A model generated the notes under the pieces. It was not told the origin of the DNA and did no database searches. It saw nothing but the letters and a program-made list of their open reading frames with translations. This document shows, one piece after another, positions 23,556 through 43,200 of a stretch of DNA of 64,000 nucleotides. The stretch is from Candidatus Eiseniibacteriota bacterium (GTDB taxonomy: Bacteria > Joyebacterota > Joyebacteria > Joyebacterales > Joyebacteraceae): positions 1,266 to 65,265 of the forward strand of contig JAUWCJ010000001.1 of the NCBI GenBank assembly GCA_030609365.1, in the 5' to 3' direction. Each line of letters starts with the position of its first letter. Within the stretch, counting starts at the first letter, position 1. The translations under genes were made by a program, and so were the position numbers.

Positions 23556-23641
23556 CGTAGCTTCTCCCCCTTGTTTCCAGTCGGGACGTGGTCGCCGTCC
23601 GCGGACCGGCCGCCCGAGCCTTCGGGAACCGACCGTGTAGT

Positions 23642-24067: not shown

Positions 24068-24068
24068 G

Positions 24069-26033: not shown

Positions 26034-26039
26034 GCCTCC

Positions 26040-26966
26040 CTAAAACAGACTCTTCTCCGCCAGAACGGGTAGCGGGTCCACGGAGTTGTCAGTGAAGTCC
26101 AGGTGCTTCTTGTCAATGCCCAGTGCAATCCCCAGAAGCTGTGTGAAGTAGACCACCGGGACACGACTGAACCCCTTGACGCGCTCGGCCATCTTCTCCT
26201 GATGCCTGTCGAGATTATAGCGGCAGAGCGGGCAGGTCGTGACGATGATGTCGGCGTTGCGTTTGAGCGCGGAGACGACGACGTTCTGTGAGCATGACAC
26301 TGCCAGCTCCTCGTCGTTGACGACCTGGAACCCCCCGCAGCACTCTGTCTTCATCGGGAAATCGACCGCTTCGCATCCGAGCGTCTCGAGGAATTCCTCG
26401 AAGATCGTGGGCTGCTCGGGGTCGTCGAACTTCATCTCGTTCTTGGGGCGAAGCAACATGCACCCGTAGTAGGGCGCCACCTTGAGACCTTCGAGCTTCT
26501 TCGTCACGGCGGAGGCGACTTTGTCGTAGCCGACCACATCGCGCAGCATCTCGATGTAGTGGAGAACCTCCACCTGCCCCTCGTAGTCCTCGTGCGTGTA
26601 GCTCTCTACCTTCTTGCGCGCCTCGGTGTCCGCGCGGAGAAACAGGTTAGTCTTGTCCCTCTTGTCCTCGTCGTCGCGCATCACGTTGTTGCAGCGCTTG
26701 AGAACGTTGTAGCAGAAGGAGCACAGCGTGACGACCTTGTCGCCTAGCCGGGACGCGTAGGACAGGTTCCTTACCCCTGCCAGGACGTCCATCACGCTGT
26801 CGGTCACGAGCGGGTACACGGCGCCGCAGCAGGTCCAGATGGCGAGTTCCTCGAGCTCGACGCCCAGGGCCAAAGCACATTCTCTTGCGGATGTGTCGAA
26901 GTCTCGTGCCCTCTCGTGAAGCGTACAGCCCGGGTAGTACGGGATCTTCATCTCTTTCTCCGGCAC
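26040..26966 (-). CDS. hdrB: Heterodisulfide reductase subunit B-like (two CCG domains)
   Basis: Two Cys-rich CCG-domain signatures: YYPGCTL..WTCCGAVY and YYGCMLLRP..TECCGGF. Confidence 0.8.
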   Translation of the reverse strand: MPEKEMKIPYYPGCTLHERARDFDTSARECALALGVELEELAIWTCCGAVYPLVTDSVMDVLAGVRNLSYASRLGDKVVTLCSFCYNVLKRCNNVMRDDEDKRDKTNLFLRADTEARKKVESYTHEDYEGQVEVLHYIEMLRDVVGYDKVASAVTKKLEGLKVAPYYGCMLLRPKNEMKFDDPEQPTIFEEFLETLGCEAVDFPMKTECCGGFQVVNDEELAVSCSQNVVVSALKRNADIIVTTCPLCRYNLDRHQEKMAERVKGFSRVPVVYFTQLLGIALGIDKKHLDFTDNSVDPLPVLAEKSLF

Positions 26967-26969
26967 GGT

Positions 26970-27413
26970 CTATCCGTTCAGCTTCCTCAATGCCCCGACC
27001 ACACCCATCTGCGGCGCATCCGACATCATCACCTTCGTCAACCCGTCCGCGTCGACCTTCGGTGTCGCGAGCCGGATCCGCAGGACGATGGCCCTCAGCG
27101 CGTCACAGATGCTCGAGAACTCGACGCCCTTCGGGCACCTAGACGCGCATTGCAGACACGACGCGCACGTCCATATGGTCTTCGAACTCAGAACCTCGTC
27201 AATCTGGCCGAGCTGAAGAAGCCTGATGACCTCACTCGGGATTATGTCCATCTCTTCGACGACGGGACACCCGGCCGAGCACCTGCCGCACTGGTAGCAA
27301 GCAAGGATGCTCTGCCCGGAGAGCGTTTCCACCCGGTCGATGGCCTCGTCCTTGACCATGCCCGCGGTGAGCCTGAGTCTCATCGATACCTCCAGGGTAC
27401 AGCTATAGACCAA
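26970..27413 (-). CDS. hdrC: Heterodisulfide reductase subunit C-like (2x4Fe-4S)
   Basis: CYQCGRCSAGCP and CASCLQCASRCP motifs, ~147 aa. The true start may be the internal Met (MRLRL..). The gap to hdrB is 3 nt. Confidence 0.75.
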   Translation of the reverse strand: MVYSCTLEVSMRLRLTAGMVKDEAIDRVETLSGQSILACYQCGRCSAGCPVVEEMDIIPSEVIRLLQLGQIDEVLSSKTIWTCASCLQCASRCPKGVEFSSICDALRAIVLRIRLATPKVDADGLTKVMMSDAPQMGVVGALRKLNG

Positions 27414-27736: not shown

Positions 27737-28798
27737 ATGCGAATGAGACTGCAGTGTTGTGCATTGCTTCTGCTTGCCACCCTGCCGGCCGCCGTCTGTG
27801 CCGGAGTCATCGTCGTCGACCCCGTGGGTGGCGGCGACTACGACAACATACCCGAGGCCATGTTCCACGGTACGGCTGACGACACGGTGCTCGTGTTGCC
27901 GGGCTTCTACGAGGTGGAGACGGGCATTCCTTACCCGTGGCCCATCCTCCTGACGGCCGACAGCCCCGCGCTCGTCAGCCAGGGAGGTGCTGCGCTGACG
28001 CTCATTTTCGGCAACGGTCTGATGCCGGCCCTCGACGTACGGGACGATACGTTCGGCGCGCGGGCCTTCATAGCAGGATTCACGTTCCAGTGGCTGGAGA
28101 CGCCGCTGGACTGGGGCTATCCGACGAGCGGGACCGTCTACTTCACGGACAACATCGTGAAGGGGTGCGAGACGGGAGTGGACGTCCGCATGGGTGAAGG
28201 GCTGGTCGCCAGAAACCTTATCGAGGGACCGGGCACCTACGGGATCCAGACCGGGCACTTCGAGGGCGTGATAGAGGACAACGAGGTGCACGGGTTCAAG
28301 GACGGCATCACGGGCGCGGACGGGAACACGGTGATACAGCGAAACCACATCCACGACAACGGGATCAGCGGTGTGGCGGGGTTCAACGACTGCATCGCCA
28401 TCGACAATGTCGTTGAGGACAACGGCTGGGCCGGGTTCAGCATCTCGTTCGACGCCCACCTGACGGGCAACGTCATCCGTGGCAACGGCACGGGCATCAA
28501 CTTCTGGGGTGGACCGCACAACGGGTTCCTGAACGGGAACGACATCTACGACAACGCGGAGTTCGCCGTGCACTCATACTGCGAAGAGCACATCCCCGTC
28601 CCGCCCGACTTCGACGCCACCATGAACTGGTGGGGTACAACCGACCCGGACGAAATCGCGGCGAGCATCGACGACTGCCACGACAGCATGTGGTCGGCCG
28701 TATGTTTCGTCGTCGAGCCGTGGTGCACGGCGCCCGGGTGCGACCCCACGCCCGCCGAGCTGTCGAGCTGGGGCGCGATCAAGGCTCTGTATAGATGA
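27737..28798 (+). CDS. Secreted right-handed parallel beta-helix repeat protein ending in SWGAIKALYR tag
   Basis: The start at MRMRLQCCALLLLATLPAAVCAG (signal peptide) is preferred to the longer ORF start at 27641. Repeated N-x-I-x-x-N / GxxG beta-helix turns run from NIVKGCETGVDV to GNDIYDNAEF, with an NWWGTTDPDEIAASIDD motif. The extreme C-terminus is ELSSWGAIKALYR. Confidence 0.6.
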   Translation: MRMRLQCCALLLLATLPAAVCAGVIVVDPVGGGDYDNIPEAMFHGTADDTVLVLPGFYEVETGIPYPWPILLTADSPALVSQGGAALTLIFGNGLMPALDVRDDTFGARAFIAGFTFQWLETPLDWGYPTSGTVYFTDNIVKGCETGVDVRMGEGLVARNLIEGPGTYGIQTGHFEGVIEDNEVHGFKDGITGADGNTVIQRNHIHDNGISGVAGFNDCIAIDNVVEDNGWAGFSISFDAHLTGNVIRGNGTGINFWGGPHNGFLNGNDIYDNAEFAVHSYCEEHIPVPPDFDATMNWWGTTDPDEIAASIDDCHDSMWSAVCFVVEPWCTAPGCDPTPAELSSWGAIKALYR

Positions 28799-29784
28799 TG
28801 GCAGAAGAACGGATCAGAAATGGATCGGCCGAGCCGGGGCTGAAACCCCGGCTCGGCGTCAGTACCTGTCTCCTGGGCGAGAACGTCCGCTACGACGGCA
28901 CGGAGAAGAGCGACCCGATCCTGCTTGGGGCGTTCGGAGACGCCGTTGAATGGGTGCCCATCTGCCCCGAGGTCGAGTGCGGCATGACCGTGCCCAGAGA
29001 CCCGATGCACCTGGCCGACGACCCGGACTCTCCGAGGCTCGTGACGACGGCCACGGGCGAGGACCAGACGGGGCGCATGCAGACGTGGATGCGGTCCCGT
29101 CTCGACGAGCTCGCCGGCTGTGACCCCTGGGGATTCGTGCTGAAGAGCAGATCACCCAGCTGCGGGCGGAGCGCTGTGCCGGTGCTGGACTCGACGGGCG
29201 CGCCGGCGGGCGAGGCCGCCGGGCTCTTCGCCGCCGCAGTCGCCGTGCGCTTCCCGCTGTTGCCGGTCGCGGACGAGAGCAGTCTGCGTGACGACTCGAT
29301 GTGGGACAACTTCATCGAGCGTCTCTTCTGCCTGAAGAGATACCGCGACTCCATGCAGCCGGAGGGGAGCCGCGAATCGCTGGTCGCGTTCCACGCCGCG
29401 CATGAGCTTCAGCTCATGGCGCACGACCGGGACGTTCTCCATGAGATGGAGGAACTGGTGGCGCGCTCGAGGAAGCTCCCACTGGATGAACTCTCTGCCA
29501 GATACGAGGAGCTCCTGACGACGGCGATGGAGTTCGTGGCCACCCCGGCGCAGAGTGCCGACGCTTTCCTGCACGCCCTGGGCCTCCTCGAGCGCTACAT
29601 GAACCCCGGCGAGAGGCAGGATGCGCTCGAGCTCATTGAGGAGCACCGCGGCGGGCGCGTCCCCTTGACCGTTCCCACGAAGCTCCTCGGGCGCTACATC
29701 CAGAAGTACCGCGTGGAGCACCTCGCCACTCAGTCCTGTTTCGCCTCGCACCCCAACGAACTGAAACTGCGAAATCGCTCCTGA
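28795..29784 (+). CDS. DUF523 (TudS-like) + DUF1722 fusion protein (YbgA family)
   Basis: N-terminal LGVSTCLLGENVRYDG..ILLGAFGDAVEWVPICPEVECGM matches DUF523 (Cys-rich 4Fe-4S site). The C-terminal helical half (..LVAFHAAHELQLMAH..) matches DUF1722. Confidence 0.65.
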   Translation: MMAEERIRNGSAEPGLKPRLGVSTCLLGENVRYDGTEKSDPILLGAFGDAVEWVPICPEVECGMTVPRDPMHLADDPDSPRLVTTATGEDQTGRMQTWMRSRLDELAGCDPWGFVLKSRSPSCGRSAVPVLDSTGAPAGEAAGLFAAAVAVRFPLLPVADESSLRDDSMWDNFIERLFCLKRYRDSMQPEGSRESLVAFHAAHELQLMAHDRDVLHEMEELVARSRKLPLDELSARYEELLTTAMEFVATPAQSADAFLHALGLLERYMNPGERQDALELIEEHRGGRVPLTVPTKLLGRYIQKYRVEHLATQSCFASHPNELKLRNRS

Positions 29785-29864
29785 ATCCGGCTCTGGCGCG
29801 GACGCGGGGCAACACAAGACGGCGCGCACAGGCGGCGCGGCCGGAGGAAGCGGAGTGACGCACC

Positions 29865-30650
29865 ATGGGCGAACTCGAGGTCAGGGAACTCAGGTCCGGC
29901 GAGGAATCACTATGGCTCGGGTCTGATGCGGAAGGCGGGCCCGGTGCGGACGGCGAATCCGAGAAGCTCACCAAGTTCCGCCGCTTGTTCGAGGAGCGGT
30001 CCTCGCAGGACCCCCGCTCGTTTCTCGTGGCACTCGACGGGCCACGCGCCGCCGGGCGACTGAAGGGACTCTTCCTCAGCGACAAGCTCTACTTCGTCCA
30101 GGAACTCCACTGCGCGGAGGGTCTCCCCTGCAGCGTGGTCGAGGACGCGCTTGCGAGCTTCCTCGGTGACTCGTTCTCGCGCGACGGCATCGGGATCCTG
30201 AGCTGGGACCGGACGAAGAGCGCGGAGACCAACGCCGCGCTCGAGCGCGCGGGGCTTCTGATCGAGAAGAAGAAGGTGTTCGTTGCTCGCGGCCTGAAGG
30301 GTGACCTCCCCCGGCCCGGGACGCACTTCGCGTTCCGGACGCTTGCAGAGGCCGGGAAGGACGAGTTCCTGCCCGTGATGACGGAGGCCGCGGCTACGGG
30401 CGGGCCCTGCACGCCTCGGGGCTTTCGATGCTCGCTGAGCGCGGCGTCACACGGTACGTGGGCTCCACCGACACGCGGAACGGCCCGATGCTCAAGGTCT
30501 TCGAAGCGAACGGATGCCCGCAGACCGGCATACAGCGCTTCTACAAGCCCCCCGCCCGGTAGCGGCGGCGCACCGGACCGATTCTCGTTCGCGGTAGCAG
30601 CGGCAGTGTGCCCGATTCTCCTTTTGACTGCAGGCAAGCTCTCCCTATAG
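29865..30650 (+). CDS. GNAT-like acetyltransferase candidate, probably frameshifted near 30400-30430
   Basis: The first ~180 aa read as a protein (..ALERAGLLIEKKKVFVARGL..). After ~30420 the called frame becomes low-complexity. The +2 frame gives a clean GNAT-like C-terminus ..LAERGVTRYVGSTDTRNGPMLKVFEANGCPQTGIQRFYKPPAR* ending at 30562. Confidence 0.35.
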   Translation: MGELEVRELRSGEESLWLGSDAEGGPGADGESEKLTKFRRLFEERSSQDPRSFLVALDGPRAAGRLKGLFLSDKLYFVQELHCAEGLPCSVVEDALASFLGDSFSRDGIGILSWDRTKSAETNAALERAGLLIEKKKVFVARGLKGDLPRPGTHFAFRTLAEAGKDEFLPVMTEAAATGGPCTPRGFRCSLSAASHGTWAPPTRGTARCSRSSKRTDARRPAYSASTSPPPGSGGAPDRFSFAVAAAVCPILLLTAGKLSL

Positions 30651-30702
30651 AGTCATCTCTACGTATAGTCATCTCCATCATGGAGTCGTCTTCACTGACG
30701 AC
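30624..30702 (+). promoter_or_regulatory. Promoter-like TTGACT-16-TATAGA plus operator-like repeats upstream of the XDH-family operon
   Basis: -35 TTGACT at 30624-30629 and -10 TATAGA at 30646-30651. Direct repeats TATAGAGTCATCTC (30646-30659) and TATAGTCATCTCC (30664-30676). Palindrome TCCATCATGGA (30674-30684). Inverted repeat GTCGTC-N6-GACGAC (30685-30702). The region is AT-rich for this genome. Confidence 0.4.
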
Positions 30703-30739
30703 ATCCTGTCCTCCGGAGAACCGCTCCCGACGAGGTGAA

Positions 30740-33085
30740 ATGAGCAAGCGAGAGATTCAGGATGGTCCGCCCGAGAGGGACCGCACCGCGGCGGTCGGCG
30801 CGCCGGTCAAGCGCGTTGACGCGTCCGACAAGGTCACCGGACGGGCCGTCTATCTGGACGACATGGTCATGCCCGGCGTCCTGCACGCCGCGCTGGTCTT
30901 CCCCGGGTGCGCCCACGCGGTGCTCAGAGGGGTGGACGCGTCGGCCGCGAGGTCGATGGCTGGCGTGCGTTCCGTCCTGACAGCCGACGACATCCCCGGA
31001 GAGAATCAGGTCGGCGTCATCGATACCGATCAGCCGCTTCTTCCCTTCGACAGGATAAGATACGAAGGAGACGCCGTGGCCGTCGTTGTGGCCGAGACGG
31101 CGGTGCTGGCACGCGAGGCGGCGGACGCCGTGTCCGTCGACCTGACGGAACTGCCGGGCGTCTTCGACGCCGTCCGTGCGATGGAGCCGGACGCGCCGCT
31201 CGTTCACGAGAGCGGGAACGTTTTCCTCCACGACAAGGTCAGGAAGGGCGATGTCGACGCCGGGTTCGATGCGGCCGACATCATAGTGGAGCGCGAGTTC
31301 CGCACCCACCACCAGGAACACTGCTACCTCGAGCCTCTGGCGGCGCTCGCTGTACCTGCGGACAACGGGTCGATGACGGTCTACGGGACGATGCAGTGCC
31401 CGTTCTACGTGCAGAAGGCCGTGGCCGATGTGCTGGGGCTTCCACTCGCATCCGTCCGCGTCATCCAGACCGTCACGGGCGGTGGGTTCGGTGGGAAGGA
31501 GGATGTACCCAGCGAGATTTGTGCGTGCGCGGCGCTCGCCGCGTGGAAGACGGGAAGCGCGGTCAAGCTCGTCTACTCCCGGGAAGAGGATTTCCTCCGC
31601 TCGAGCAAGCGCCATCCCATGCGCGTGACGTTCAAGCTGGGCGCCAAGCGCGACGGCACGTTCACGGCCGCGAAGATTCGCGCGGTCGCGGATGGCGGAG
31701 CCTACACGACACTGTCCCCGGTCGTCGTGTTCCGCGCGGCCGCGCACGCGACGGGCCCCTACGAGATCCCGAATGTCTGGACAGACGTCTACGGCGTCTA
31801 CACCAACCGCCAGACGGCGGGCGCATTCAGGGGGTTCGGGCAACCTCAGGTCATCTTCGCCAACGAATCGGTCATAGACGAGGTGGCCGACGCCATCGGG
31901 ATGGACCCCGTGGACATCCGTCTCAAGAACTGCCTGGACGTCGGGAAGCGGACGGCGACGAACCAGCTTCTGACAGAGAGCGTGGGGCTGAGAGAGACGC
32001 TTGAACTCGCACGGGAGCTCTCGGGATGGGACGGGAAGCGGGCGGCGCAGGGAGGACGCGGCGGCGAACAACCGGGACGCGCATCGGACGCTCGCGACCA
32101 CATCAAGCGCGGCATCGGGGTCGGGTCCATCTATTACGGTGTCAGCCTGGGCGCGAAGGGACTGGCGCTCGACGGGTCCGGCGCCCACATCAACGTCTAC
32201 CGCGACGGCTCGGTCAGGATCGGCGTGGGCGGCACAGAGATGGGACAGGGCCTCCTGACCGTACTCGCACAGATCGCGGCCGACAGTCTCGGCGTGCCGG
32301 TCGGCTTCGTTCACGTCGAACGCGCGGACACGAGCGTCGTCCCGGACAGCGGCCCGAGCGTCGCTTCGCGGACCACACTCATGACTGGAAACGCCGTGAT
32401 CGACGCCGCGCGGAAGCTTAGGACCGTCATGGGAGAGGTCGCGGCCGACAGTCTGGGGCTCGACCCGAGCGAGATCGAGTTCGATGGTGGTACCGTCGGT
32501 TCAGCAGAGAAGAACGTGACCTTCGCGGAGCTCGCCGAGCAGTGTTGGGTGAGAAACGTCAGCACGGCCGCCGACGGCTGGTACGCCGCACCCGAGTCCA
32601 CGTTCGACGAGAACGGCCAGGGTGACGCCTACGCCGTCTACTCGTACGCGACACACGTAGCGGAGATTGAAGTGGACACGGAGACCGGACGGGTAACGGT
32701 CGTGAGGATCACGGCCGCGCACGACGTCGGGCGAGTGATGAACCCCGTGACGCTCGAGGGGCAGATAGAGGGAGGCGTGCTGCAGGGCATCGGGATGGCG
32801 CTCTACGAGCAGATGAAGAGCAAGGGCGGAGCGGTCGTGACGCCGGACTTCTCCACCTACATCATCCCCACGGCGATGGACACGCCGGCGATCCGGACCG
32901 TGTTCGTCGAGGATCCCTATTCGAAAGGTCCCTTCGGCGCGAAGGGCATCGGCGAGACTCCGGCCATGCCGGGAGCCGTTGCCGTGGCGAATGCCGTGTC
33001 CAATGCGCTCGGCGTGCGATTCCACGAGCTGCCCCTGACCCCTGAGCGCGTCAGGCGGGCGGTGTCTGAGAGGAAGAATTCATGA
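30740..33085 (+). CDS. Xanthine dehydrogenase/aldehyde oxidase family molybdopterin-binding subunit (orphan large subunit)
   Basis: The start at MSKREIQ.. (RBS GAGGTGA 5 nt upstream) is preferred over the ORF start at 30608. Ald_Xan_dh hammerhead and MoCo-binding domain motifs are present (..KRVDASDKVTGRAVYLDDM.., ..QTVTGGGFGGKED.., ..GVSLGAKG.., ..IEGGVLQGIGMALYE..). It has no signal/Tat motif, no N-terminal 2Fe-2S domain and no adjacent small or FAD subunit genes. Confidence 0.85.
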   Translation: MSKREIQDGPPERDRTAAVGAPVKRVDASDKVTGRAVYLDDMVMPGVLHAALVFPGCAHAVLRGVDASAARSMAGVRSVLTADDIPGENQVGVIDTDQPLLPFDRIRYEGDAVAVVVAETAVLAREAADAVSVDLTELPGVFDAVRAMEPDAPLVHESGNVFLHDKVRKGDVDAGFDAADIIVEREFRTHHQEHCYLEPLAALAVPADNGSMTVYGTMQCPFYVQKAVADVLGLPLASVRVIQTVTGGGFGGKEDVPSEICACAALAAWKTGSAVKLVYSREEDFLRSSKRHPMRVTFKLGAKRDGTFTAAKIRAVADGGAYTTLSPVVVFRAAAHATGPYEIPNVWTDVYGVYTNRQTAGAFRGFGQPQVIFANESVIDEVADAIGMDPVDIRLKNCLDVGKRTATNQLLTESVGLRETLELARELSGWDGKRAAQGGRGGEQPGRASDARDHIKRGIGVGSIYYGVSLGAKGLALDGSGAHINVYRDGSVRIGVGGTEMGQGLLTVLAQIAADSLGVPVGFVHVERADTSVVPDSGPSVASRTTLMTGNAVIDAARKLRTVMGEVAADSLGLDPSEIEFDGGTVGSAEKNVTFAELAEQCWVRNVSTAADGWYAAPESTFDENGQGDAYAVYSYATHVAEIEVDTETGRVTVVRITAAHDVGRVMNPVTLEGQIEGGVLQGIGMALYEQMKSKGGAVVTPDFSTYIIPTAMDTPAIRTVFVEDPYSKGPFGAKGIGETPAMPGAVAVANAVSNALGVRFHELPLTPERVRRAVSERKNS

Positions 33086-35082
33086 GATGCCACGCAGGAC
33101 CGTCCGCACCGTTGCTGACGCTCCTCATGCTCGCCGTGGCGCTCGCTGCCGCGACCGCCACGGCGAGCGAGTCTCCGGATGCAGGAAACCATGGCAGCGC
33201 CGAGTACCTGCCCATGCGAGATTCGTCCAAGCTCCTCGCTGCCTCGCCGTCCGCCGGCGTGATGGAGGAGGCTCTGCGAGCTCTCGCCCTCACGCGTGAC
33301 GACCTCTCGTTCCGGACGGACTACGCCGACCAGCCGGATTCGTTCCGGATAGCCGTGGTCGACCGGCTGCTCGCGCGCCCTCTCGAGACGGAGAGCTACG
33401 TCGCAGGGTTCGCGGATGAGATCTGCGCCATCGCCTCTCTGGAGGGACTCGTGGGCATCTGCGCCCGCGACCTCGATCTGATCATCGATGAACCGACGCG
33501 CGTCGAACCAACGGAGCCCATGGAACCCAAGTCGATCGGACCGACCGCGCTCGATGTGCTGCTGCCCGCGATGAGTGAGGCCGCGGGGCTGATCGCCACG
33601 GCGTTCGATGGCCTGTCGGAGGAGCAGCGGCGGTTCGTGGCGCTTCACGCGCCGTCGATCCTGGACGAGGAAGAGTTCGACCCGGACCGGCCGATCGACG
33701 AACGGGACCGCGAGGCCGAGGAGGAAGAGGCGCTCGCGGACGAGCTCCTCCGCATTGCCAGTCTCGTTGACTACGATCGTCTGGCGGCCGCGGGCGCCGT
33801 GATAGCGCGAGCGGTTGACAGCTCCATCCCGCTCCTGGTGGACGACCCGATGAACCTCCCGAGAACGCATACCGACTACGAGCTCGAGAGGACGGCTTCC
33901 TCGTGGCTGGCCTCGGGCGACGTCCTGAACATCATGGAGACAGAGGCAGGGACCGTGATCATCGGGGGGCCGGGACGTACCACATATAGAGGGGGCGTCG
34001 CGCTCATCATCGATGTCGGCGGCGACGACGTATACGTGGGCGACGTGGCAGCGGCCCTGAGGGATCTTCCCGTGTCCATCGTGATAGACCTCTCCGGCGA
34101 CGACATCTACCGCGGTGACACGCACTCGCTGGGCGCGGGGTTCATGGGTGTAGGCGTGCTCGCGGATCTCGAGGGTGACGATGTTTACACCGCAGGAGAC
34201 TTCTCGCTGGGTGCGGGTCTGTTCGGGGTCGGGATTCTGGTGGACGCAGCGGGCAACGACAGCTACTCGGGCGACACGTGCACCGAGGGCGCCGGCGCGT
34301 TCGGCATCGGAGTCCACCGGGACAAGGGCGGCAACGACAGCTATAACGCCGCGCTCTTCTCGCAGGCTTTCGGGTTCGTCGGAGGCGCGGGGCTGCTGCA
34401 CGATGTGGCAGGGAACGACGTCTACTTCGCTGGAGGGAAGTACACCGACGAGATACGGTACTTCGACCACTACATCAGCCTCTCACAAGGATTCGGGTTC
34501 GGCTGGCGGCCCGACGCCTCCGGTGGCATCGGGATCCTCATCGACGAGGCCGGGAACGATGTCTACGTCTCCGATATATTCGGCCAGGGTTCAAGCTACT
34601 GGTTCGCGGTCGGGGGGCTGGTCGACTACAGCGGGAACGACCAGTACGTCTCCTACCAGTACGCCCAGGGCGCGGGCACTCACATCACGGTCGCCGCACT
34701 GATCGACTGCGACGGCGATGACAACTACGTGTCGAAGGGCGTGTCGCAGGGGTGTGGCCACGATCTTGCCGTAGGCATCCTGCACGACCTGGCCGGTGAC
34801 GACAGCTACACCTGCCACGACCTCTCCCAGGCCGCCGGAAACGCCAACGGCATCGGGATCCTGATGGACGACGCGGGCAACGACGCGTACTCGGTCCGGA
34901 ACCCGAACAACACACACGGGTATGGGAACCTCCGGCGCGACTATGGGAGCATCGGCGTCTTCCTGGACTGCGGTGGCGCCGACTCCTACTCCGGCAGAGG
35001 AGCGGACGGCACGTGGTGGACCGGGAGCATGCACGGCATCGGGGTCGATGAGGAGAAGGCGTTGGGAGGTGGTGCTGAATGA
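33082..35082 (+). CDS. Secreted protein with ~12 tandem ~26-aa GxGxhxDxxGNDxY repeats (predicted beta-helix/beta-roll-like)
   Basis: Signal peptide MRCHAGPSAPLLTLLMLAVALAAATATA. Residues ~305-655 are repeats such as VSIVIDLSGDDIYRGDTHSLGAGFMG, VGVLADLEGDDVYTAGDFSLGAGLFG and VGILVDAAGNDSYSGDTCTEGAGAFG. The start overlaps the XDH stop (ATGA). Confidence 0.6.
   Translation: MRCHAGPSAPLLTLLMLAVALAAATATASESPDAGNHGSAEYLPMRDSSKLLAASPSAGVMEEALRALALTRDDLSFRTDYADQPDSFRIAVVDRLLARPLETESYVAGFADEICAIASLEGLVGICARDLDLIIDEPTRVEPTEPMEPKSIGPTALDVLLPAMSEAAGLIATAFDGLSEEQRRFVALHAPSILDEEEFDPDRPIDERDREAEEEEALADELLRIASLVDYDRLAAAGAVIARAVDSSIPLLVDDPMNLPRTHTDYELERTASSWLASGDVLNIMETEAGTVIIGGPGRTTYRGGVALIIDVGGDDVYVGDVAAALRDLPVSIVIDLSGDDIYRGDTHSLGAGFMGVGVLADLEGDDVYTAGDFSLGAGLFGVGILVDAAGNDSYSGDTCTEGAGAFGIGVHRDKGGNDSYNAALFSQAFGFVGGAGLLHDVAGNDVYFAGGKYTDEIRYFDHYISLSQGFGFGWRPDASGGIGILIDEAGNDVYVSDIFGQGSSYWFAVGGLVDYSGNDQYVSYQYAQGAGTHITVAALIDCDGDDNYVSKGVSQGCGHDLAVGILHDLAGDDSYTCHDLSQAAGNANGIGILMDDAGNDAYSVRNPNNTHGYGNLRRDYGSIGVFLDCGGADSYSGRGADGTWWTGSMHGIGVDEEKALGGGAE
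33994..35050 (+). repeat. In-frame tandem repeat array (about 12 units of ~78 nt) encoding the GNDxY repeats
   Basis: The periodicity is visible in the translation: each unit is hydrophobic-G-h-L-h-D-x-x-G-(N/D)-D-x-Y followed by a Gly-rich linker. The units have diverged at the nucleotide level, so they are not recent duplicates. Confidence 0.5.
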
Positions 35083-36110
35083 GAACCTTCGGTACTGTCC
35101 TTCTTCTGCTCGTTCTGATGGCCGGACCCGCCGTCTCCCAGAATGTGGGTGCGGAGGTTGAGACGGAGGTCGCTGAGTCCGACACGGCCGAGCTCGCGGA
35201 GCTCACGCCCGTGGAGCTGTTTCTGCGGGCGTCCTCGTCGGCGCTCCAGTTCGAGCACATGCGCGAGCCGTCCCGGTGCATCCTGGTATCGAACCACGAG
35301 GAGTCGCTCCCCTATCTCGTCACCCGGCTCGACACGGACGACGCGAGGGAGCGGCACGCGCTGGAGGACATCCTTGTCAGGATCGGCACCGCGGCCGCCG
35401 ATCCGGTCATAGAGGCGTTCCTGTTCGAGGCCGGGAGAACGGAGACAACTCGCGGCGCCAGGCTGGCGGCGGCGGTGCTGGGCAAAATCGGTGATGCCCG
35501 CGCCGTGGGCCCGCTCGCCTCCGTCCACGACCATCACGACTGGAAGGTGCGCGGGGCCATCGGCGGAGCGCTCGGCAGGATCGGCACGGCCGAGACGGTT
35601 CATCCTCTAGTTTCACTTCTCCTGGACGAGAACGAGGCGGTCAGGAAGAGCGCGGCCGTCGGTCTGAGGCGCGTCGCCGTACGCGCCCGTGACGACGAGG
35701 CGCCGGACCACGACGCGGCCAAGGCCCTCGACGCGGACGTCATCGAATCGCTCGCGCGTGCCCTCGGGGATCCCAGCTACGCGGTGAGATACAGCTCGGC
35801 CGATGCGCTTGCCCGCATAGGTGAGACGGCGCTGCCGCTCCTGTTTGAGATCGGTGAGGGCGGGGCGGCCGAGGCTCGATTGATGGCGCTTCGGGCCGCC
35901 GGCAAAGTCGGCTCTCGTAGGGCTCTCAAGCCGCTGGTGAGAGCGCTCAAGGACTCCGACTGGGCGGTGCGGGCGCACGCCGCAGCCGCCATCGGAACGA
36001 TCGGAGCAGACAAGCGGAGCCGTCGAGCGCTGGAGCGTCTGGTCGCTTCCGACCCCCATCCGTTCGTCGTCGCATCGGCCGCCGCCGCACTCGACTCGGA
36101 AGACCGCTAG
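35079..36110 (+). CDS. Secreted HEAT-repeat protein (PBS-lyase HEAT-like repeats)
   Basis: Signal peptide MRTFGTVLLLLVLMAGPAVSQ. Repeated ~30-aa units carry ..D/E..VR..A..ALG.IG... (e.g. DWKVRGAIGGALGRIG, NEAVRKSAAVGLRRVA, SYAVRYSSADALARIG, DWAVRAHAAAAIGTIG). The start overlaps the upstream stop (ATGA). Confidence 0.65.
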   Translation: MRTFGTVLLLLVLMAGPAVSQNVGAEVETEVAESDTAELAELTPVELFLRASSSALQFEHMREPSRCILVSNHEESLPYLVTRLDTDDARERHALEDILVRIGTAAADPVIEAFLFEAGRTETTRGARLAAAVLGKIGDARAVGPLASVHDHHDWKVRGAIGGALGRIGTAETVHPLVSLLLDENEAVRKSAAVGLRRVAVRARDDEAPDHDAAKALDADVIESLARALGDPSYAVRYSSADALARIGETALPLLFEIGEGGAAEARLMALRAAGKVGSRRALKPLVRALKDSDWAVRAHAAAAIGTIGADKRSRRALERLVASDPHPFVVASAAAALDSEDR

Positions 36111-38182
36111 CCTCCGCTGCGGGCGGCCATGAGCTCCCGCAGACGGGCCAGGTTGGCCGCGATGCCGGGGTCGTTCGGGCTCAGACGCCTGGCCTCCTCC
36201 AGTTCGCGCAGCGCCTCTTCGTAGCGTCCGGCCATTGCCAGGATGACACCGAGGTCATGCCGCGCCTGTGCATAGGTCGGGTCTATCTCGACGGCACGAG
36301 CGTACGCTCCGGCCGCCTCCGGGAGCCTCCCGGTCTCCTCGAACACCCTGCCGAGCGCGTCCCACGCCTCTGTGAATCGAGGATCGGCCATCACCGCGCA
36401 CTTGAGGTGGTACTCCGCCCGCTCGAGGTCGCCCTCCTGCGCCAACACCAGGCTCAGGTTCATGTGCGCCTGCTCCGTGTACTGGTCGAGAGCGATCGCT
36501 TCCTCGAACCACGCCTTCGCCTCCGCGACCTCTCCCCGCCCGAGCAGGAAGCTCCCGATGTTGTTCCGAACGGACGCGAGGCTCGAGTCCTTCTCGGCCG
36601 ATGACAGATACGCGGAGAGCGCCTCGTCGCTGCGACCCAGCTCTTCGAGCGCCAGGCCCATGCTGTTGTACGCCTTTGCGTATCCGGGCGATATCTCTAT
36701 GGCGCGGCGGTACTCCCTCACGGCGTTCTCGTACATCCCCTGCGCAGCACTGGCGCGCCCGAGGGTCATGTGCGTCTGAGCGCGGTCTCCCACGTGTGTG
36801 TCGTAGAAATCGTGGTTCACGAAAAGCCCTATCCCGGCGAGCGCCAGCAGCGCGACTGCGAGTTCCTTCACCCTGCCTCGCGCCGCGAGTCCGCACAGCC
36901 TGAGAACGGCCGCCGACGCAAACAGGAGGAGAAACGGAACAAGCGGCAACCTGAAGCGGGCGTTGACGAAGAACAGGAGGACGCCCGCCGTGTAGGACAG
37001 AACGAAGAGCATGGCGAGCGTGGCTGCCTTGTTCCTCCGTGCGGTGAAGAACATGCCGAGCACGGCCAGCGGCGCCATGATTCCGAAGTTGAGCCACCTG
37101 AGCCAACGGAACACCGGTGACATACGACCGAAGAAGTAGATGTCCTTGTTGTTGGCCAGCTCATAGCTGTCCCAGAAGAGCACGAACTTCCGGACGTAGA
37201 GCCTGGCAGCGGCCCCGGGGTTTCCGAGGAGAAACTCCCTTCCCCTCCCGTACCAGAAGCCCGATACCTCGCTCGGCTTCAGATCGCGCCCCAGCTGGGA
37301 TTCCGCTATCCGAACGGCGTCCTCGTTCTCCCATGACTCCCCGAGCACCGGCAGCACCGCCGACGCGCCGTCCGACGCGGAGTTGTTCCCGATGAAGAAG
37401 TTGATGCCGCCCTGAGACGCGATGGGAACGAAGTCCCGCTCGACGGCGTAGTTCCGCAGCGTCACGGGAAGAATCACCGCAGCGACACCGAGCACGACGA
37501 CCGCGAACCGCGCCGCACCCGCCTTGAACGCCGCCGGAAGTTCCACCGGCGCGCCGGCTTCGCCGGAGGTGCTTCGCGCCCGCCACCACATCCAGCAGAA
37601 CAGCGCCGGCAGGAACACGAGAACACTGGGGCGCGCGATGCCGGATATCCCCATCACGGCTCCCGCCGCGAACCAGCGTCCGCGGCCCGGTGACTCGTCC
37701 GCGCGCAGAAGCGCGCTCATCAACAGGACGTCGAGGAGCACTACCAGCGAAACAATCAGAAGCTCGTTGCTGAAGTAGAGGAACAGCGGATAGAGAGCGG
37801 CGACGGCCGCTCCCAACAACGCCTCCCTCTCTCCGAACATGCGCCTGCCGAGGAAGTACACGGCAACCGGAGTCAGGGCCGTGCAGGTCGCCTGCACAAG
37901 GCGCGCCGCCTGCAGGCTCTCCCCGAGTACCGAGAAGACGAGACCGAGGAGGTACGGATAGAGCGGCGCTCTGAAGAACACCGTGCTCCCCAGCCAGTCG
38001 CCCGCCGCGAGCGCCCTGGCCCACTCCACGTGGTACAGCTCATCCAGTATCGGGAAGCCCGCGAGCGGGCTCCCGCGCAGGTGAAGCACGTACACGAACC
38101 GGAGCACCCACGCTACTGCAAAGATGACTCCCGCCCTCAGAAGCAGCCTCTTCCGGATCTCCGCGTCGCGTTTCGGGACCAA
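36107..38182 (-). CDS. GT-C membrane glycosyltransferase (PMT_2/ArnT-like, GT39/83 family) with C-terminal TPR repeats
   Basis: N-terminal polytopic region begins DELYHVEWARALAAGDW..FFRAPLYPYLLGLVFSVLG..RLVQATCTALTPVAVYFLGRRMFG, typical of PMT_2/ArnT-family glycosyltransferases with ~10+ TM helices. The C-terminal ~250 aa are TPR repeats. Confidence 0.7.
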   Translation of the reverse strand: MVPKRDAEIRKRLLLRAGVIFAVAWVLRFVYVLHLRGSPLAGFPILDELYHVEWARALAAGDWLGSTVFFRAPLYPYLLGLVFSVLGESLQAARLVQATCTALTPVAVYFLGRRMFGEREALLGAAVAALYPLFLYFSNELLIVSLVVLLDVLLMSALLRADESPGRGRWFAAGAVMGISGIARPSVLVFLPALFCWMWWRARSTSGEAGAPVELPAAFKAGAARFAVVVLGVAAVILPVTLRNYAVERDFVPIASQGGINFFIGNNSASDGASAVLPVLGESWENEDAVRIAESQLGRDLKPSEVSGFWYGRGREFLLGNPGAAARLYVRKFVLFWDSYELANNKDIYFFGRMSPVFRWLRWLNFGIMAPLAVLGMFFTARRNKAATLAMLFVLSYTAGVLLFFVNARFRLPLVPFLLLFASAAVLRLCGLAARGRVKELAVALLALAGIGLFVNHDFYDTHVGDRAQTHMTLGRASAAQGMYENAVREYRRAIEISPGYAKAYNSMGLALEELGRSDEALSAYLSSAEKDSSLASVRNNIGSFLLGRGEVAEAKAWFEEAIALDQYTEQAHMNLSLVLAQEGDLERAEYHLKCAVMADPRFTEAWDALGRVFEETGRLPEAAGAYARAVEIDPTYAQARHDLGVILAMAGRYEEALRELEEARRLSPNDPGIAANLARLRELMAARSGG

Positions 38183-38742
38183 TGGACCTCCATCTCTGAG
38201 GTGCGCTCACGGCCTCATAACAGCGCTTCGTCAAGATTATTTGCGCTCGTCCACTCGCGTGCGGAGCGAACGCAGAACCTATCCTAGCGGAAACAGGCCG
38301 CGACACAAAGCAAGCATGCCAAGCCCGACGCCCTGCGTAGACGGCGTCAAAGCGACATTACGGCGATATGGGGCAATTGGCCTGAATCCCTCGCACACCG
38401 CATCGAGACAGGAAAACACCGTCTGACTTCCTGCTCAACTTGTCTCAACATGTGCGCTTTGTACGAAAAACTCATTGACCCGGAGGCGGGGATGCTATAG
38501 ACTACTAGTCGAACTACGGGAGATTATCACCAAGCACATGCGAGCGTGATTGTGTGTCGCCTGGGCTCACACGAGTTCAGGTGGCAAGTGTGTGCAGGTG
38601 CCGAGTCGGGGGCCGGCATCTTCACCGTGCATCCGCGTCGACTGATGATGCAGCAGTGCTTGGTGGTGAAGCAACATCTGGCTACTGGTCAATTCGAAGT
38701 GAAGCAGAGAGTAACTCACAAGAAGGAAAGGAGACGGACGGC

Positions 38743-39405
38743 ATGAAAAGGCTAACGTTTGCAGCTGTTGTGCTGGCGTTCGCGCTCCTCGTTGTGCAGA
38801 CCGCCGCGGCCGACGATTCGTACATGATCGGCATGCAGGGAGTCGGCAGCCTGATGAAGAGTCCCGTTGTCTACAGCGGGAGCTTCATGTGGGGTCTCGT
38901 TGGTTCGTGGGAGATCACGCTCGACGACTCCATGTGGCCCGGCGAGGCAGACAGCACCGCGAGGTTCGACTACATATGGGACAACTTCTTCGCCGACCAC
39001 TACATCGACACGACGGGTGCGGAGAGCTGGACCGGTTACTTCGATGGCGCGACACTGATGGCGGCTCCGCGCTTCCGGTTTGACACCATCTCTCCGGTAG
39101 GCGCGATCGAGGGCGACATCACCTTCTCGATTCTCGTGCGCGACTGGTACGCGGACGGGATACTGTCGCAGCAGGAAAAGCATCACAACCTGAACCTGAG
39201 TGCGACGCTCAGTCTGAATCCGAGCCTCGGCGAGGGCTATTTCGAGAATATGTGCGGGCACGGTTCGGTCAGCTCGGGCAACTTCAACTTCCATAACCCA
39301 CCGCTGGACGACAACCTGCAGATAGTCGGACAGATCCAGACCTACACTTGCCCCAGCCCGGTGGAAGAGACGACCTGGGGCGCGATGAAGGCGCTGTTCA
39401 GGTAG
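38743..39405 (+). CDS. Secreted protein, paralog 1 of a tandem pair, ending in TWGAMKALFR tag
   Basis: The start at MKRLTFAAVVLAFALLVVQTAAADD (RBS AGGAAAGGAG) is preferred to the ORF start at 38554. It shares SPVVYSGS.., GSWEITLDD..WP, YIWDN and GYFDG with the downstream paralog. The C-terminus is EETTWGAMKALFR. Confidence 0.55.
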   Translation: MKRLTFAAVVLAFALLVVQTAAADDSYMIGMQGVGSLMKSPVVYSGSFMWGLVGSWEITLDDSMWPGEADSTARFDYIWDNFFADHYIDTTGAESWTGYFDGATLMAAPRFRFDTISPVGAIEGDITFSILVRDWYADGILSQQEKHHNLNLSATLSLNPSLGEGYFENMCGHGSVSSGNFNFHNPPLDDNLQIVGQIQTYTCPSPVEETTWGAMKALFR

Positions 39406-39484
39406 GCAGGCGGCGAAACCGATACAGGTAATCGAGAGAGTGTTCGAGTAACAGCCCGAAAGGGCGAGGCCAAAGGAGAGGACA

Positions 39485-40132
39485 ATGCGCGCACTTCTGA
39501 TAGTTTTGGCTGTTGCGGCCCTTGCAACTGCGGCCTACGGCCAGGAGACGTTTGTTTGGTTCTACGGCGCGGGAACGGGCGACTTCATGGACAGCCCCGT
39601 GGTCTTCGGCGGCGCCATGGATCCCGGCGGTGACATAGAGCTCGGATCGTGGTCAATCACGATCCCGGACGACGGTTGGCCCACTGACCCGGTCGACCGG
39701 TCCACCTACATCTGGAACACGTACTACGCGCCGAACTACACACCCGGCAACCCGAGCTTCTGGAAGGGCTACTTCGACACAGAGCACGGTGCACCCGACA
39801 TGAACGCTCTGTTGATCGTCGACGACACGAACGGCGGCGTCATGACCGGTATCTGCTCCGTTGAGATCCAGGTTCAGGATCTGAACAACAACGGCGTGCT
39901 CGACGAGGGCGAGTTCTGCAGCGGCAGCCTTTCCGGTCTCGTCATCATCATCCGGGACGGCACGGGCGTGTACGACGGCATGTGCGGAACGGGCAACTAC
40001 TTCGGCAGCTACATCAAGGACTGCCCGCTCACGACCGAGACCTGGAACTTCGGTATGTATCTCTGGCTCGAGGACTGCACCACGCCGGTCGAGGACGCGA
40101 CCTGGGGCGCCATCAAGGCCCTGTATCAGTAG
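39485..40132 (+). CDS. Secreted protein, paralog 2 of a tandem pair, ending in TWGAIKALYQ tag
   Basis: Signal peptide MRALLIVLAVAALATAAYG. Motifs SPVVFGGA.., GSWSITIPDDGWP, YIWNT and GYFDT match the upstream paralog. The C-terminus is EDATWGAIKALYQ. Confidence 0.6.
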   Translation: MRALLIVLAVAALATAAYGQETFVWFYGAGTGDFMDSPVVFGGAMDPGGDIELGSWSITIPDDGWPTDPVDRSTYIWNTYYAPNYTPGNPSFWKGYFDTEHGAPDMNALLIVDDTNGGVMTGICSVEIQVQDLNNNGVLDEGEFCSGSLSGLVIIIRDGTGVYDGMCGTGNYFGSYIKDCPLTTETWNFGMYLWLEDCTTPVEDATWGAIKALYQ

Positions 40133-40266
40133 TTCGGATTTCGCGAGCACCAGGAGCACCCGGCCCGCGATATACCTGACACGAGTCCTCGTACTGCGGT
40201 GCGGGGACTCGTCAGATGAATCAGGGTAGCGTGGCAGGTGCTCTGCAAACAGGAACAACGATACAG

Positions 40267-43200
40267 ATGATCTTTCGAAGCGGGAGGCGTGCGGGGCGCT
40301 CCGCAGCTTGGATGCTCATCGCCGTCCTCCTTGCAGGCGCAATCGGCAGCACCCTGTTTACGGCAGCAGCCCAAGCAGAGCGACGAGCGCCTGCACCAAC
40401 GACCATAGCGCTCACGAGCGCGGACACCCATCAAGCTGGCGTCGCCAACGCGCGCCAGCTTCTGTCTTGTCTTGCCCAACGGGATGACGACTCCGACGGT
40501 ATATCAAGAAGACTTGTTGCGCTCCCCGACTGCAATGGCGCGATAGTGGAAGCCGTTGTTCTCTCGGGCCTCCGCCTGTCACAGGACGAGGCAGCGGAAC
40601 TCGCATGGGTACAGGACATCGCCAGGATCAGAGAGCAGACGGTCGCCGTGGTCGCCATCGACTCAGACGCTGTTCGCTCCGAGCAGGCACGGCTCGGTCT
40701 TCCGGACGGCATCGAGATAGTCGTCGCTCCCGAGGGGGCGCGTGGACCGGTCTCGAAGAACACTGGTCCCTTCACGGGTGTCTGCGAGAGCGCAATCCTC
40801 AACTACGATGCGTCCGGCAACCAAGCCCCGAGGTGGGCGCCGCCCTCGTCCGCCGCGAAGCGGCGCGGTGGCGTGACCTACTGCTACTCGGTGGAGGACT
40901 GCGCGTCGGCCGGCATCGACCTGCTCGTCGTCGTCGCGGATGAGCTTCACTACTCGCCGGTTCTGCAGGCGTTCGCGAATCACCACTCGTCGTACCTGGG
41001 ACTTAACATCGGCGTCGTGGGCACCTCCGCTCTGGCGGAGCTTGCTCCTGAGGCTCTGCGCGGATTCATCCAGGACGTGTACGAAACACAGTCGGCGGCG
41101 CATTTCGGGGACGGACACCTGGGCTTCGTCATCCTCGTGGGCGACGCATATGCCGACGACAACACCACGGTAATGATCCCTACATACGACGGCTACGGTG
41201 GGACGGAGGTGGCGTCCGACCACTACTATGCGTGCGTCAGCGGAGACGATGACTTCGAAGACGTCATGATAGGTCGCCTCTCGGTGGGCAACGTGAACGA
41301 GCTGGTGGCCATCGTCGGCAAGTGCGCAAACTACATGCCCATGCCCAGTGGAGAGCCGTGGACCGAGAGCACTCTCCTTGTCGCGGGGCTCTTCTACACG
41401 ATCAAGGACGACTACGTCACGCTGTTCGACGAGTACGAGGAACTCATGCCGGACGGCTGGCCGATCGACCGGATCTACAGACACGACTACGCGAACGACC
41501 ATCTCTGCTCGCTGGACGTGGTTGAGGCCTTCAACGAGGGTCACCTGATAGTCAACTACGCGGGGGACGGATGGATCTCGTCCTGGTATCGGGTGATGGA
41601 CACCACGGACATCCCGCTCATGGACAACGGCGACCGTCTTCCCATCGTGCTGTCGATGGCGTGTATGACCGGATGGTACGACAACACGACGGAGATCGAC
41701 CCGAACGGCTCCTACGACTGCTTCGCCGAGCAGATAGTCAACACATCGGGGAGGGGCGCCATCGCGTGCCTGGCGGCGCCGCGCGCCAGCGACGGCGGCA
41801 TGTTCCGTACGCTGACCAAGAGCATCTACCGTGCCGTGTTCACAGAGAACAGCGTCTTCCTCGGCGAGACCGTGGCCCTAGCGAAGCTCCTCCACCTTCA
41901 GGACGGCGGGAGCGTCGATTACCCCCGCCACTTCAACCTCTTCGGGGACCCGGCGCTCATCTACAGATGGGATACGGCACCGACAGACGCGCCTGAACTC
42001 GTCGTGAGACCACACGAGGTCGTGACAGCTCCCGAACTTCCGGCGATCGGTGACAATCTGACGGTCGAGATGACCGTGAGGAACACGAGCACCCTGATGG
42101 CCACTGACGTGCTGCTCCGCGTGACGGACGTCTCTGCAGCGGGCTCCTATTCCCAGGACATCTTCATTCCTTCGATCAGCGACTGGTCGTCCGAGACCGT
42201 GACGGCCGTGATTCCCGCGCTCGCAGGCGGATGGCACATGCTCGACGTTACGGTCGATCCGAACGGGACCATCGACGAGATAGACGAGGACAACAACACG
42301 GTCACCCTTGATATCTACGCCTATCCGCACGTGGTCGGATTCCCGGCGGACGCGGGCCCCGATGTCTTCGGACCTTGCATCGCGCGCCTCAACGGAACGG
42401 AAACGCACATTCTCCTTATGGAAGGCGATGCGGTTGTTCGCGCGCTCGATTCGTCCGGTCATACCGTGTGGGTCACCGACCCGGCGACGGCCCCGGCCAA
42501 CTACGGGCCGGAGATCGCCCCGGCCGTGGGAGATCTCGACAACGACGGCATCAATGAGGTCGTGGCCACCAGGCGAATGGGTCTCTCGGCGTTCGATTCG
42601 GAAGGACAGGTTCTCTGGGATCTCATCACGGACGACCCGGTCGGCTCCCCCGTGCTGGCCGACGCGGACACGGACGGTGATCTCGACGTCATCCTCGCAA
42701 CGAAGATGTTCTTTGGAGGAGGCTCGGCGATAATCGCGGTCGACGAGAACGGGACGCTGATCTGGTCCTACTCGCTGCCCTCGGGTGACCCGACCAGCGC
42801 GACCCCCGCGGTCGGCGACTTCGATCTGGACGGAATCACCGACTTCGTCTTCGGTACGCTCGGAGGGAAGGTGGGCGCCGCTTCGTGCTCGCAAACCCCG
42901 CCGGTCGAGCTGTGGCCTGCCGTCCAGCTGGGCGCGCACGCCATTGATGTTCTGGGACTTGCCGACCTCGATAACGACGGCATGCTCGAGATCGCCGCCA
43001 TCGGTGGCAGCGTGTACGCCCTGAACACTGAGGACGGCACAGAGAGCTGGACGGTCGCCCTGGACACTACCGCGGTGGCGCTGGCCATCGGTGATATCGA
43101 CTCCGATGGAGTCGCTGACGTTGTGACCGGGACCGCGGCAGGAACGATCTACGCACTCAAGAACGGTGTCGAGATCTGGACCTCCCCGCTTTCCTCGAAG

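Follow-up and report, generated by a model that had tools for sequence, protein, structure and literature searches.

A 64,000-nucleotide stretch of a Candidatus Eiseniibacteriota genome (assembly GCA_030609365.1, contig JAUWCJ010000001.1, positions 1,266 to 65,265; hereafter the window) encodes three putatively secreted proteins, here called P1, P2 and P3, that end in nearly the same short peptide. Is this tail the last element of a shared fold, or a signal that is linked to different proteins and read after export? The evidence favors, with modest confidence, the latter: the tail, of ~15 residues, is probably a portable C-terminal signal for sorting or recognition that lacks a transmembrane segment and is linked to unrelated Sec-exported passengers in candidate phyla of the Fibrobacteres-Chlorobi-Bacteroidetes (FCB) group. 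A sorting or recognition role had been proposed in the initial annotation of this DNA. It is supported by: i) the spread of the tail over unrelated folds; ii) its predicted position outside the fold; and iii) its exchange, among homologous passengers, with the C-terminal domain (CTD) of type IX secretion system (T9SS) cargo and with PEP-CTERM signals, from all of which we infer the function.

Three secreted proteins of the window share a C-terminal tail

A six-frame search of the window with the expression WGA[IM]KAL[YF] returned exactly three copies. All read on the + strand, with a single residue between the motif and the stop codon, and their Trp codons lie at 28769, 39376 and 40103. They close the open reading frames (ORFs) of P1 (..SSWGAIKALYR), P2 (..TTWGAMKALFR) and P3 (..ATWGAIKALYQ), all of which start with signal-peptide-like N-termini. 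Thus the three near-identical C-termini on signal-peptide proteins reported by the initial annotation are confirmed, and the window holds no further copies.

P1 (27737..28798, + strand; 353 residues) is, from its translation and Pfam, a predicted secreted NosD-like parallel beta-helix protein: its N-terminus, MRMRLQCCALLLLATLPAAVCAG, is signal-peptide-like, residues 131-211 match Pfam NosD (7.8e-09), and the tail PAELSSWGAIKALYR occupies 28751..28795, immediately before the stop codon at 28796-28798. An orthologue that also bears the tail was found at 82% identity in an Eisenbacteria metagenome-assembled genome (MAG; L026). P2 (38743..39405, + strand; 220 residues), whose tail PVEETTWGAMKALFR at 39358..39402 is followed by the stop codon, has a 74% identical orthologue in the MAG L117. 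P3 (39485..40132, + strand; 215 residues) likewise runs into its stop codon after the tail PVEDATWGAIKALYQ at 40085..40129. P2 and P3, both predicted from their translations to be secreted, had been taken for paralogues, which their 29% identity bears out; neither matches any Pfam or NCBIfam model, and comparison of the P3 fold with the Protein Data Bank (PDB) returned nothing significant (best E 7e-3, template-modeling (TM) score 0.3). Overall, proteins of the window have 72-97% identical counterparts in MAGs of Candidatus Eisenbacteria (L026, L031, L108, L113 and L117).

The tail recurs across candidate phyla

A codon-degenerate DNA pattern for W-G-A-[I/M]-K-A-L-[Y/F]-X-stop was run against one genome per species (185,579 species, 596 Gb). 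It returned more than 118 loci, while two to four would be expected by chance from base composition. They come from no fewer than 69 assemblies, single ones of which hold as many as seven copies among the matches listed; the locus, assembly and copy counts are all lower bounds. Thus the tail is not confined to the three proteins of the window; such confinement had been named by the initial annotation as a finding that would count against a signal. The tag-bearing MAGs were assigned to Eisenbacteria, Latescibacteria, Krumholzibacteria, Fermentibacteria, uncultured Fibrobacteraceae and Calditrichaceae, and Coatesbacteria, along with unclassified or oddly labeled bins. Among the matches listed all carriers are MAGs, apart from two pattern matches with TGG in place of the stop codon (in Chloroflexus and in a Bacteroidales bin), which are internal and resemble chance matches. 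A cultured carrier was sought among the same matches and none was found; the 'Fibrobacter sp.' L062, with a G+C content (GC) of 68%, is no true Fibrobacter.

The GC of the host genomes ranges from 37% (L081) to 68%, and retention of the tail over this range indicates selection at the protein level. The pattern had no match in 2.9 million viral contigs. A search of five concatenated natural tails against a collection of 5.8 billion proteins gave 50 candidates, none of them scoring, with a word index that is ill-suited to a 10-residue motif.

Tagged proteins (of the NHL-propeller type and others) were also seen in bins labeled Patescibacteria, Nanoarchaeota, Gammaproteobacteria, Komeilibacteria and Victivallales (L020, L097, L099, L116 and L024). 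Given the remaining distribution of the tag, these labels probably reflect mis-binning or mis-classification.

The conserved unit is longer than a decapeptide

Positional conservation was counted over 114 non-redundant tails from other genomes. The initial annotation had described the tag as a decapeptide; the conserved unit spans instead ~15 residues, P-V-E-x-x-[ST]-W-G-x-[IV]-K-[AS]-L-[YF], plus one to four more. Counting from the C-terminus, P, V and E stand at -15, -14 and -13 in 70, 76 and 60 of the 114 tails, respectively, S or T at -10 in 107, and R as the last residue in 87 (R, Q, K, N or E overall). P-V-E, [ST] and the terminal R are thus conserved though the DNA pattern did not set them. 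An acidic, Pro-rich linker with Cys residues had been noted upstream of the tag in P1-P3: the linker proved general among the 114 tails, but the Cys is frequent rather than universal, since C was found at -18 in 33 tails while 39 have no Cys at all within -40..-12.

Families collected independently of the pattern share the same core (75 P3 homologues, 24 CHRD homologues and ~35 remote P2/P3 relatives). The W is essentially invariant (R in one remote P2/P3 relative) and the G is rarely replaced by S or T; after one variable position come I or V, a near-invariant K (one R in the 24 CHRD tails), A or S and sometimes others, L or M, and Y or F. The finding that 118 of 123 copies have exactly one trailing residue is partly built in, since the pattern demanded a stop codon there. 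Outside the stop-anchored pattern one to four residues follow the aromatic, and the single final residue seen in P1-P3 is therefore not a fixed feature: in the CHRD family, one residue follows in 15 of 24 tails, two to four in eight, and 25 in the remaining one.

Two variants of the terminus were observed. A sub-variant with a short acidic extension past the aromatic (..ALYESE, ..ALYKVE, ..SLYRD, ..AIYSE) occurs in the CHRD family (P0088-P0113) and in remote P2/P3 relatives; its distribution looks lineage-specific, and a variant receptor may go with it. On the + strand of L074, near nucleotide 1987, a full tail (..TTVEEISWGAIKALYR) is internal and continues in frame into 326 further residues resembling a MAM/InhA-type domain. 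It is the only clear internal copy among the matches listed, and either loss of the stop codon or fusion of two genes may explain it.

The tail is linked to unrelated folds and predicted to lie outside them

Signal-peptide-like N-termini were recognized in 97 of 104 full-length carriers by a heuristic based on hydrophobicity and charge, and one carrier is lipoprotein-like. The carriers are small (median length ~265 residues) and fall into 65 families at 40% identity. In a Pfam census of 117 carriers the models found were Beta_helix (26), NosD (16), Chlam_PMP (9), CHRD (5), NHL (3), Cleaved_Adhesin (3) and InhA-like MAM (2), with DUF642, DUF7901, LTD and others found once each, while the majority had no Pfam match. 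The tag is portable over at least 10 unrelated folds, which rules out that it is simply the closing strand of NosD or adhesin domains. The crossing of domain families first suggested by three proteins thus holds for at least 69 genomes.

Two unrelated carriers were modeled with AlphaFold2. For P3 (alignment of 29 sequences), residues 21-200 form a domain with a predicted local distance difference test (pLDDT) score of ~90 or higher, while residues 201-215 score below 50 and the tail is detached, with a short helix at 207-214. For the CHRD carrier P0083 (48 sequences), the domain at 24-139 has a pLDDT of 92-98, which drops to 73, 66 and 51 over the linker and tail at 141-161, where a helix is predicted at 150-160. 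In both models the tail is an appendage outside the predicted fold, and its helix is predicted at low pLDDT; the models, like the variety of folds, speak against the last strand of a NosD or adhesin fold, which the initial annotation had likewise named as a finding that would count against a signal. The helical hydrophobic moment of the tail, muH(100 deg), is 0.40-0.58, a value reached by 16-37% of shuffled sequences.

In L044, L045, L056 and L093 a gene for a 911-residue CBM9+DUF5916 protein, probably an outer-membrane protein, adjoins genes for tagged MAM/Cleaved_Adhesin-like proteins (..YIQIDDVIVGDE..WGAIKALYR).

Homologous passengers end in the tail, a T9SS domain or a PEP-CTERM signal

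Twelve tagged beta-helix proteins have homologues that end in a T9SS CTD of ~85 residues, at 25-35% identity over 225-555 aligned residues (plus one pair at 30% over 159). A choice of terminus is also seen in small proteins made of a signal peptide and a CHRD domain, where the domain always ends in ..GEIRGQI. Among 87 such homologues, 24 continue into the tag core (16 when the expression was anchored at the C-terminus, 24 when longer extensions were allowed), at least 25 carry PEP-CTERM (PF07589), and the remainder have nothing past the domain end.

In the P2/P3 family, a profile search of 1.84 billion representative sequences found only 57 clusters, and nearly all full-length members retain the tail. 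However, the 1919-residue protein P0190 has a P2-like domain at residues 23-224 without the tag, joined directly to a Beta_helix/Chlam_PMP/cadherin part that ends in a T9SS CTD; this CTD is 37% identical to that of the large protein encoded downstream of P3 (see below). P0186 is a fusion like P0190 with its C-terminus cut off. The occurrence of the tail in place of CTD or PEP-CTERM, together with the P0190 fusion, argues that the tail occupies the position of a sorting signal and is dispensable inside T9SS cargo.

The P2/P3-type domain was seen as an N-terminal module of giant beta-helix/cadherin surface proteins (P0190, P0186 and P0192; 1919 and more than 2903 residues). Such fusions are a Rosetta-stone hint, from sequence, that P2 and P3 may act physically with the neighboring giant cargo.

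Genes for T9SS cargo are enriched beside tagged genes

Downstream of P3 by 83 nucleotides and on the same strand lies the gene of a 1539-residue surface protein (the giant; 40216..44835, + strand), in which Pfam and NCBIfam recognize Peptidase_C25 (PorU-like), CARDB, an FG-GAP propeller, a beta-helix and a T9SS type A CTD. The CTD had been ascribed to this neighbor at the outset, and rightly: its ~85 residues (44581..44832, + strand) match FlgD_ig at residues 1464-1524 (2e-08) and TIGR04183, above its cut-off, at residues 1456-1536. The gene order P3-like followed by giant is kept in L007 (giant at 31% identity), in L048, L094 and L110 (~46%), and in L031 and L117 (~75%). The C25 domain of the giant is of the gingipain/PorU type and scores 103 bits against NCBIfam T9SS_sortase, far under the cut-off of 420 bits; the giant could be the PorU-like sortase of the lineage or merely a surface protease.

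The neighborhood set comprised 748 ORFs on 8-kb pieces from 118 loci. A hidden Markov model of the CTD built from these loci identified 39 CTD proteins, and none of the 94 tagged ORFs was among them. CTD genes made up 21 of 147 immediate neighbors of tagged genes (14%) but only 9 of 295 more distant genes (3%), an enrichment with an odds ratio of 5.4 (Fisher p = 2e-5). When orthologues were collapsed, 13 of 65 tagged families had a CTD neighbor, nine of them with pairs on the same strand. The enrichment supports a putative functional connection of the tag with T9SS cargo. No PEP-CTERM-like tail was present among the 748 ORFs.

Recurrent untagged neighbors (radical SAM, spermidine synthase, Memo/AMMECR1, ABC exporter, flavoprotein and LytB) were considered as machinery for the tag and rejected, as they are housekeeping genes that reflect conserved gene order among related MAGs.

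The architecture of the tag differs from every described signal class

Against Pfam and NCBIfam, isolated tails gave no match even when E values as high as 10 were allowed; no PDB chain was found with a similar peptide; the motif strings had no match in the full-text literature; and the literature on T9SS, Fibrobacter, Eisenbacteria, Latescibacteria and new sorting signals gave no description of the tail. The initial annotation's failure to match the tag to any named motif thus extends to Pfam, NCBIfam, the PDB and the searchable literature. C-terminal sorting tags as such are known; the architecture of this one differs from every class described.

Like the tag, the T9SS CTD stands at the C-terminus, behind a linker, on Sec-exported surface-type passengers of FCB-group bacteria; it occurs in the same genomes, often in adjacent genes, and homologous passengers bear one or the other. 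However, the CTD is a folded beta-sandwich of ~70-100 residues with motifs B, D (GxY) and E, while the tag has ~15 residues, none of these motifs and a predicted detached short helix, which in the AlphaFold2 models directly follows the passenger domain and so leaves no room for a CTD. Neither P1-P3 nor the isolated tails match the CTD models (TIGR04183/PF18962/FlgD_ig-like and TIGR04131). The tag is far too short for a T9SS CTD, as had been thought. The shortest described T9SS CTDs, which work in Prevotella intermedia, have 43-55 residues with motifs B, D and E, and for HBP35 of Porphyromonas gingivalis the last 22 residues are enough for secretion (PMC11969387).

PEP-CTERM and the other tripartite CTERM signals (the substrates of exosortase, archaeosortase, rhombosortase and myxosortase) share with the tag that they are short, portable and C-terminal, on dozens of unrelated secreted proteins per genome. 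V-P-E-P-[ST] loosely resembles the P-V-E-x-[ST][ST] of the tag, and in the CHRD family the two begin at the same point past the domain. In all small CTERM signals a transmembrane helix precedes a cluster rich in Arg (Haft preprint, 10.1101/2023.06.07.544157). The tag, on the other hand, has only 8-9 residues after P-V-E-x-x-[ST], with a near-invariant Lys in the middle and no transmembrane helix, and ends mostly in one polar residue (R/Q/K/E) without an Arg/Lys cluster; the lack of both helix and basic cluster, remarked on for P1-P3, was confirmed on the tails. PF07589 is recorded on the CHRD homologues but matched neither P1-P3 nor the tails.

Nor does the tag resemble the beta-signal of outer-membrane proteins, which is the final strand of a beta-barrel with alternating hydrophobics and a terminal aromatic: the passengers of the tag are soluble (beta-helix, CHRD, NHL), the tail is predicted outside the fold, and its terminal residue, R/Q/K/N/E, is not aromatic, in agreement with the initial annotation. 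It differs from an element of the NosD or beta-helix fold in being linked to many families, the Beta_helix and NosD models accounting for 26 and 16 of the 117 carriers, respectively. Eukaryotic PTS1 (-SKL, read by the tetratricopeptide-repeat (TPR) domain of PEX5) and KDEL are short C-terminal targeting peptides read by receptors. As an analogy of mechanism only, they are like the tag in being very short, without a transmembrane segment, at or near the free C-terminus and on unrelated cargo; they belong, however, to another domain of life and other compartments, and have no sequence similarity to it. The anchors of PBP5/6 and the membrane-targeting sequence (MTS) of MinD are longer or dimer-dependent, and vary widely in sequence. 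With the tag they share a short, terminal, predicted helical segment with aromatic and basic residues, whereas the sequence of the tag hardly changes between phyla and shows no significant amphipathicity.

A model of tail function and its alternatives

How might such a tail work? After Sec export and removal of the signal peptide, the tail would be exposed (as a short helix in both AlphaFold2 models), and a single envelope protein, conserved in these lineages, would bind it and deliver or tether its passenger to the surface of the cell or to the outer membrane; cleavage within the P-V-E linker, a plausible processing site, is possible. The most likely partner would lie in or alongside the type IX secretion/attachment system, for example a PorV-like shuttle or a C25/PorU-like sortase such as the giant. 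Near-invariance across phyla and the near-terminal position suggest recognition by one conserved envelope protein rather than by lipid, while the exchange with CTD and PEP-CTERM suggests that passengers are delivered to the outer membrane or the cell surface, or attached there. Recognition by a protein, surface delivery or attachment, and processing at P-V-E are all steps that we infer from sequence. As a broader proposal, the tail may constitute a hitherto unrecognized class of prokaryotic sorting signal with its own undescribed envelope receptor or sortase, either a third class of T9SS signal or part of an independent pathway, used by dozens of proteins per genome in at least six FCB-group candidate phyla; we put the chances of this at a little short of even.

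Several observations weigh against a surface-sorting signal. The carriers may reside in the periplasm, as NosD-like proteins do, and not on the surface. Clustering of the neighbors (748 ORFs, 118 loci) brought out no candidate receptor or machinery. The gene calls in the loci are crude (a longest-ORF greedy heuristic), 80% of tagged families have no CTD neighbor in the 8-kb pieces, and the adjacency of CTD genes could just reflect clustering of genes for secreted proteins. Moreover all carriers are uncultured MAGs, some with doubtful taxon labels.

A narrower form of the sorting-signal reading holds that the T9SS itself reads the tag, either as a third, minimal class of T9SS signal or as a docking peptide for export with, or attachment to, CTD cargo. 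The mutual exclusion of tag and CTD in proteins of the same genomes is in its favor, as are the enrichment of CTD genes beside tagged genes, the operon-like pair of P3 and the C25/CTD giant kept down to 31% identity, and the absence of the tag from a P2-like domain once it is fused to CTD cargo; that T9SS signals can shrink is suggested by the 22-residue piece of HBP35 and the 43-55-residue CTDs of P. intermedia (PMC11969387). Yet the tag lacks motifs B, D (GxY) and E, matches no CTD model, is predicted as a helix rather than beta-strands, and is about one third as long as the shortest signal for which function has been demonstrated, while the 80% of tagged families without an adjacent CTD gene fit poorly. 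A direct reading by the T9SS is thus possible but on the whole doubtful. An alternative without any receptor, in which the tail is an in-plane amphipathic helix on the outer leaflet of the inner membrane or on the outer membrane, in the manner of PBP5/6 or MinD, appears improbable. AlphaFold2 does place a short terminal helix in both carriers, W, I, L and Y with K and R are typical of interfacial helices, and the most variable position (W+2) and the small one (W+5) fall on one helical face; but the helix has only ~9 residues, a good share of shuffled sequences attains its hydrophobic moment (16-37%), W, G, K, P-V-E and [ST] are conserved across phyla more tightly than is usual for lipid-binding helices, and the presence of a T9SS CTD or PEP-CTERM in its place in homologues suggests a step of sorting.

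We consider it less probable still, indeed very unlikely, that the tail is a degron or maturation site recognized by a periplasmic protease or quality-control factor (of the Prc/Ctp type, with a PDZ domain). PDZ domains and tail-specific proteases do read short C-terminal peptides, the position of the tail is strictly or nearly C-terminal, and the P-V-E linker could be cleaved. Their known ligands, however, end in apolar or aromatic residues, while the tail ends in R/Q/K/E and allows one to four extra residues; nor would a degron be expected to swap with T9SS CTD or PEP-CTERM in homologues, or to occur on dozens of stable-looking surface-type domains per genome. As for a terminal element conserved through shared fold or ancestry, such as the final strand in NosD or adhesin domains, or mere chance, about one quarter of the carriers are indeed beta-helix proteins with a similar Cys-rich region before the tail. 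That explanation is refuted, and keeps next to no probability, in the face of at least 10 unrelated folds, a tail outside the modeled domain in two carriers, CHRD homologues that end cleanly without the tag, and more than 118 loci where two to four were expected.

Other genes of the window

Apart from the C25/CTD giant and a set of glycosyltransferases, the other annotated genes of the window are housekeeping genes. The glycosyltransferases are of the GT-C type fused to TPR repeats (PMT_2+TPR; TMEM260-like+TPR) and are encoded at 36107-38182 (- strand), 54949-57642 (+ strand) and 8173-10587 (- strand). That at 36107-38182 adjoins P2 in divergent orientation, an adjacency kept in L117. The TPR domain was considered as a reader of the tag, but the adjacency to P2 occurs only in this close relative, which leaves the idea unsupported.

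An ORF at 33082-35082 (+ strand) encodes a 666-residue signal-peptide protein with ~12 [AGSE]G[ND]D.Y repeats (such as GGDDVY, AGNDSY and SGNDQY) and no Pfam or NCBIfam match; it overlaps by 4 nucleotides the gene of a HEAT-repeat protein (35079-36110, + strand), and the pair is 88-95% conserved in L108. Just upstream of P1, a candidate run of heterodisulfide-reductase/Mvh-type electron-transfer genes (21233-27413, - strand), recognized by eye from the translations, putatively encodes a 654-residue HdrA-like flavoprotein, a small MvhD-like protein, HdrB/C-like proteins with CCG motifs and a fumarate-reductase-type flavoprotein; the L092 homologue of 21233-22861 matches FAD_binding_2. The P1 homologues in L026 and L113 have the same Hdr/Mvh-like neighbors.

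Significance

C-terminal sorting signals are the main route from sequence to prediction of a surface proteome, and for LPXTG, PEP-CTERM, the T9SS CTD and others, the signal has in every case brought a dedicated sorting machinery to light. We know of no experimental cell biology for Eisenbacteria, Latescibacteria, Krumholzibacteria, Fermentibacteria and their relatives, in which the tail marks a seemingly large set of envelope or surface proteins now left unannotated as 'hypothetical protein'. If the tail is a sorting signal, it would provide an immediate annotation rule and profile model for these proteins, as well as a starting point from which phylogenetic profiling could trace its receptor or sortase. 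Among export or attachment signals that lack a transmembrane segment, its 15 residues would make it the smallest known in diderm bacteria, with possible use as a fusion tag. Moreover, its swapping with T9SS CTD and PEP-CTERM is relevant to the evolution of sorting signals and the replacement of one by another, and there is a substantial chance that the tail marks a new pathway.

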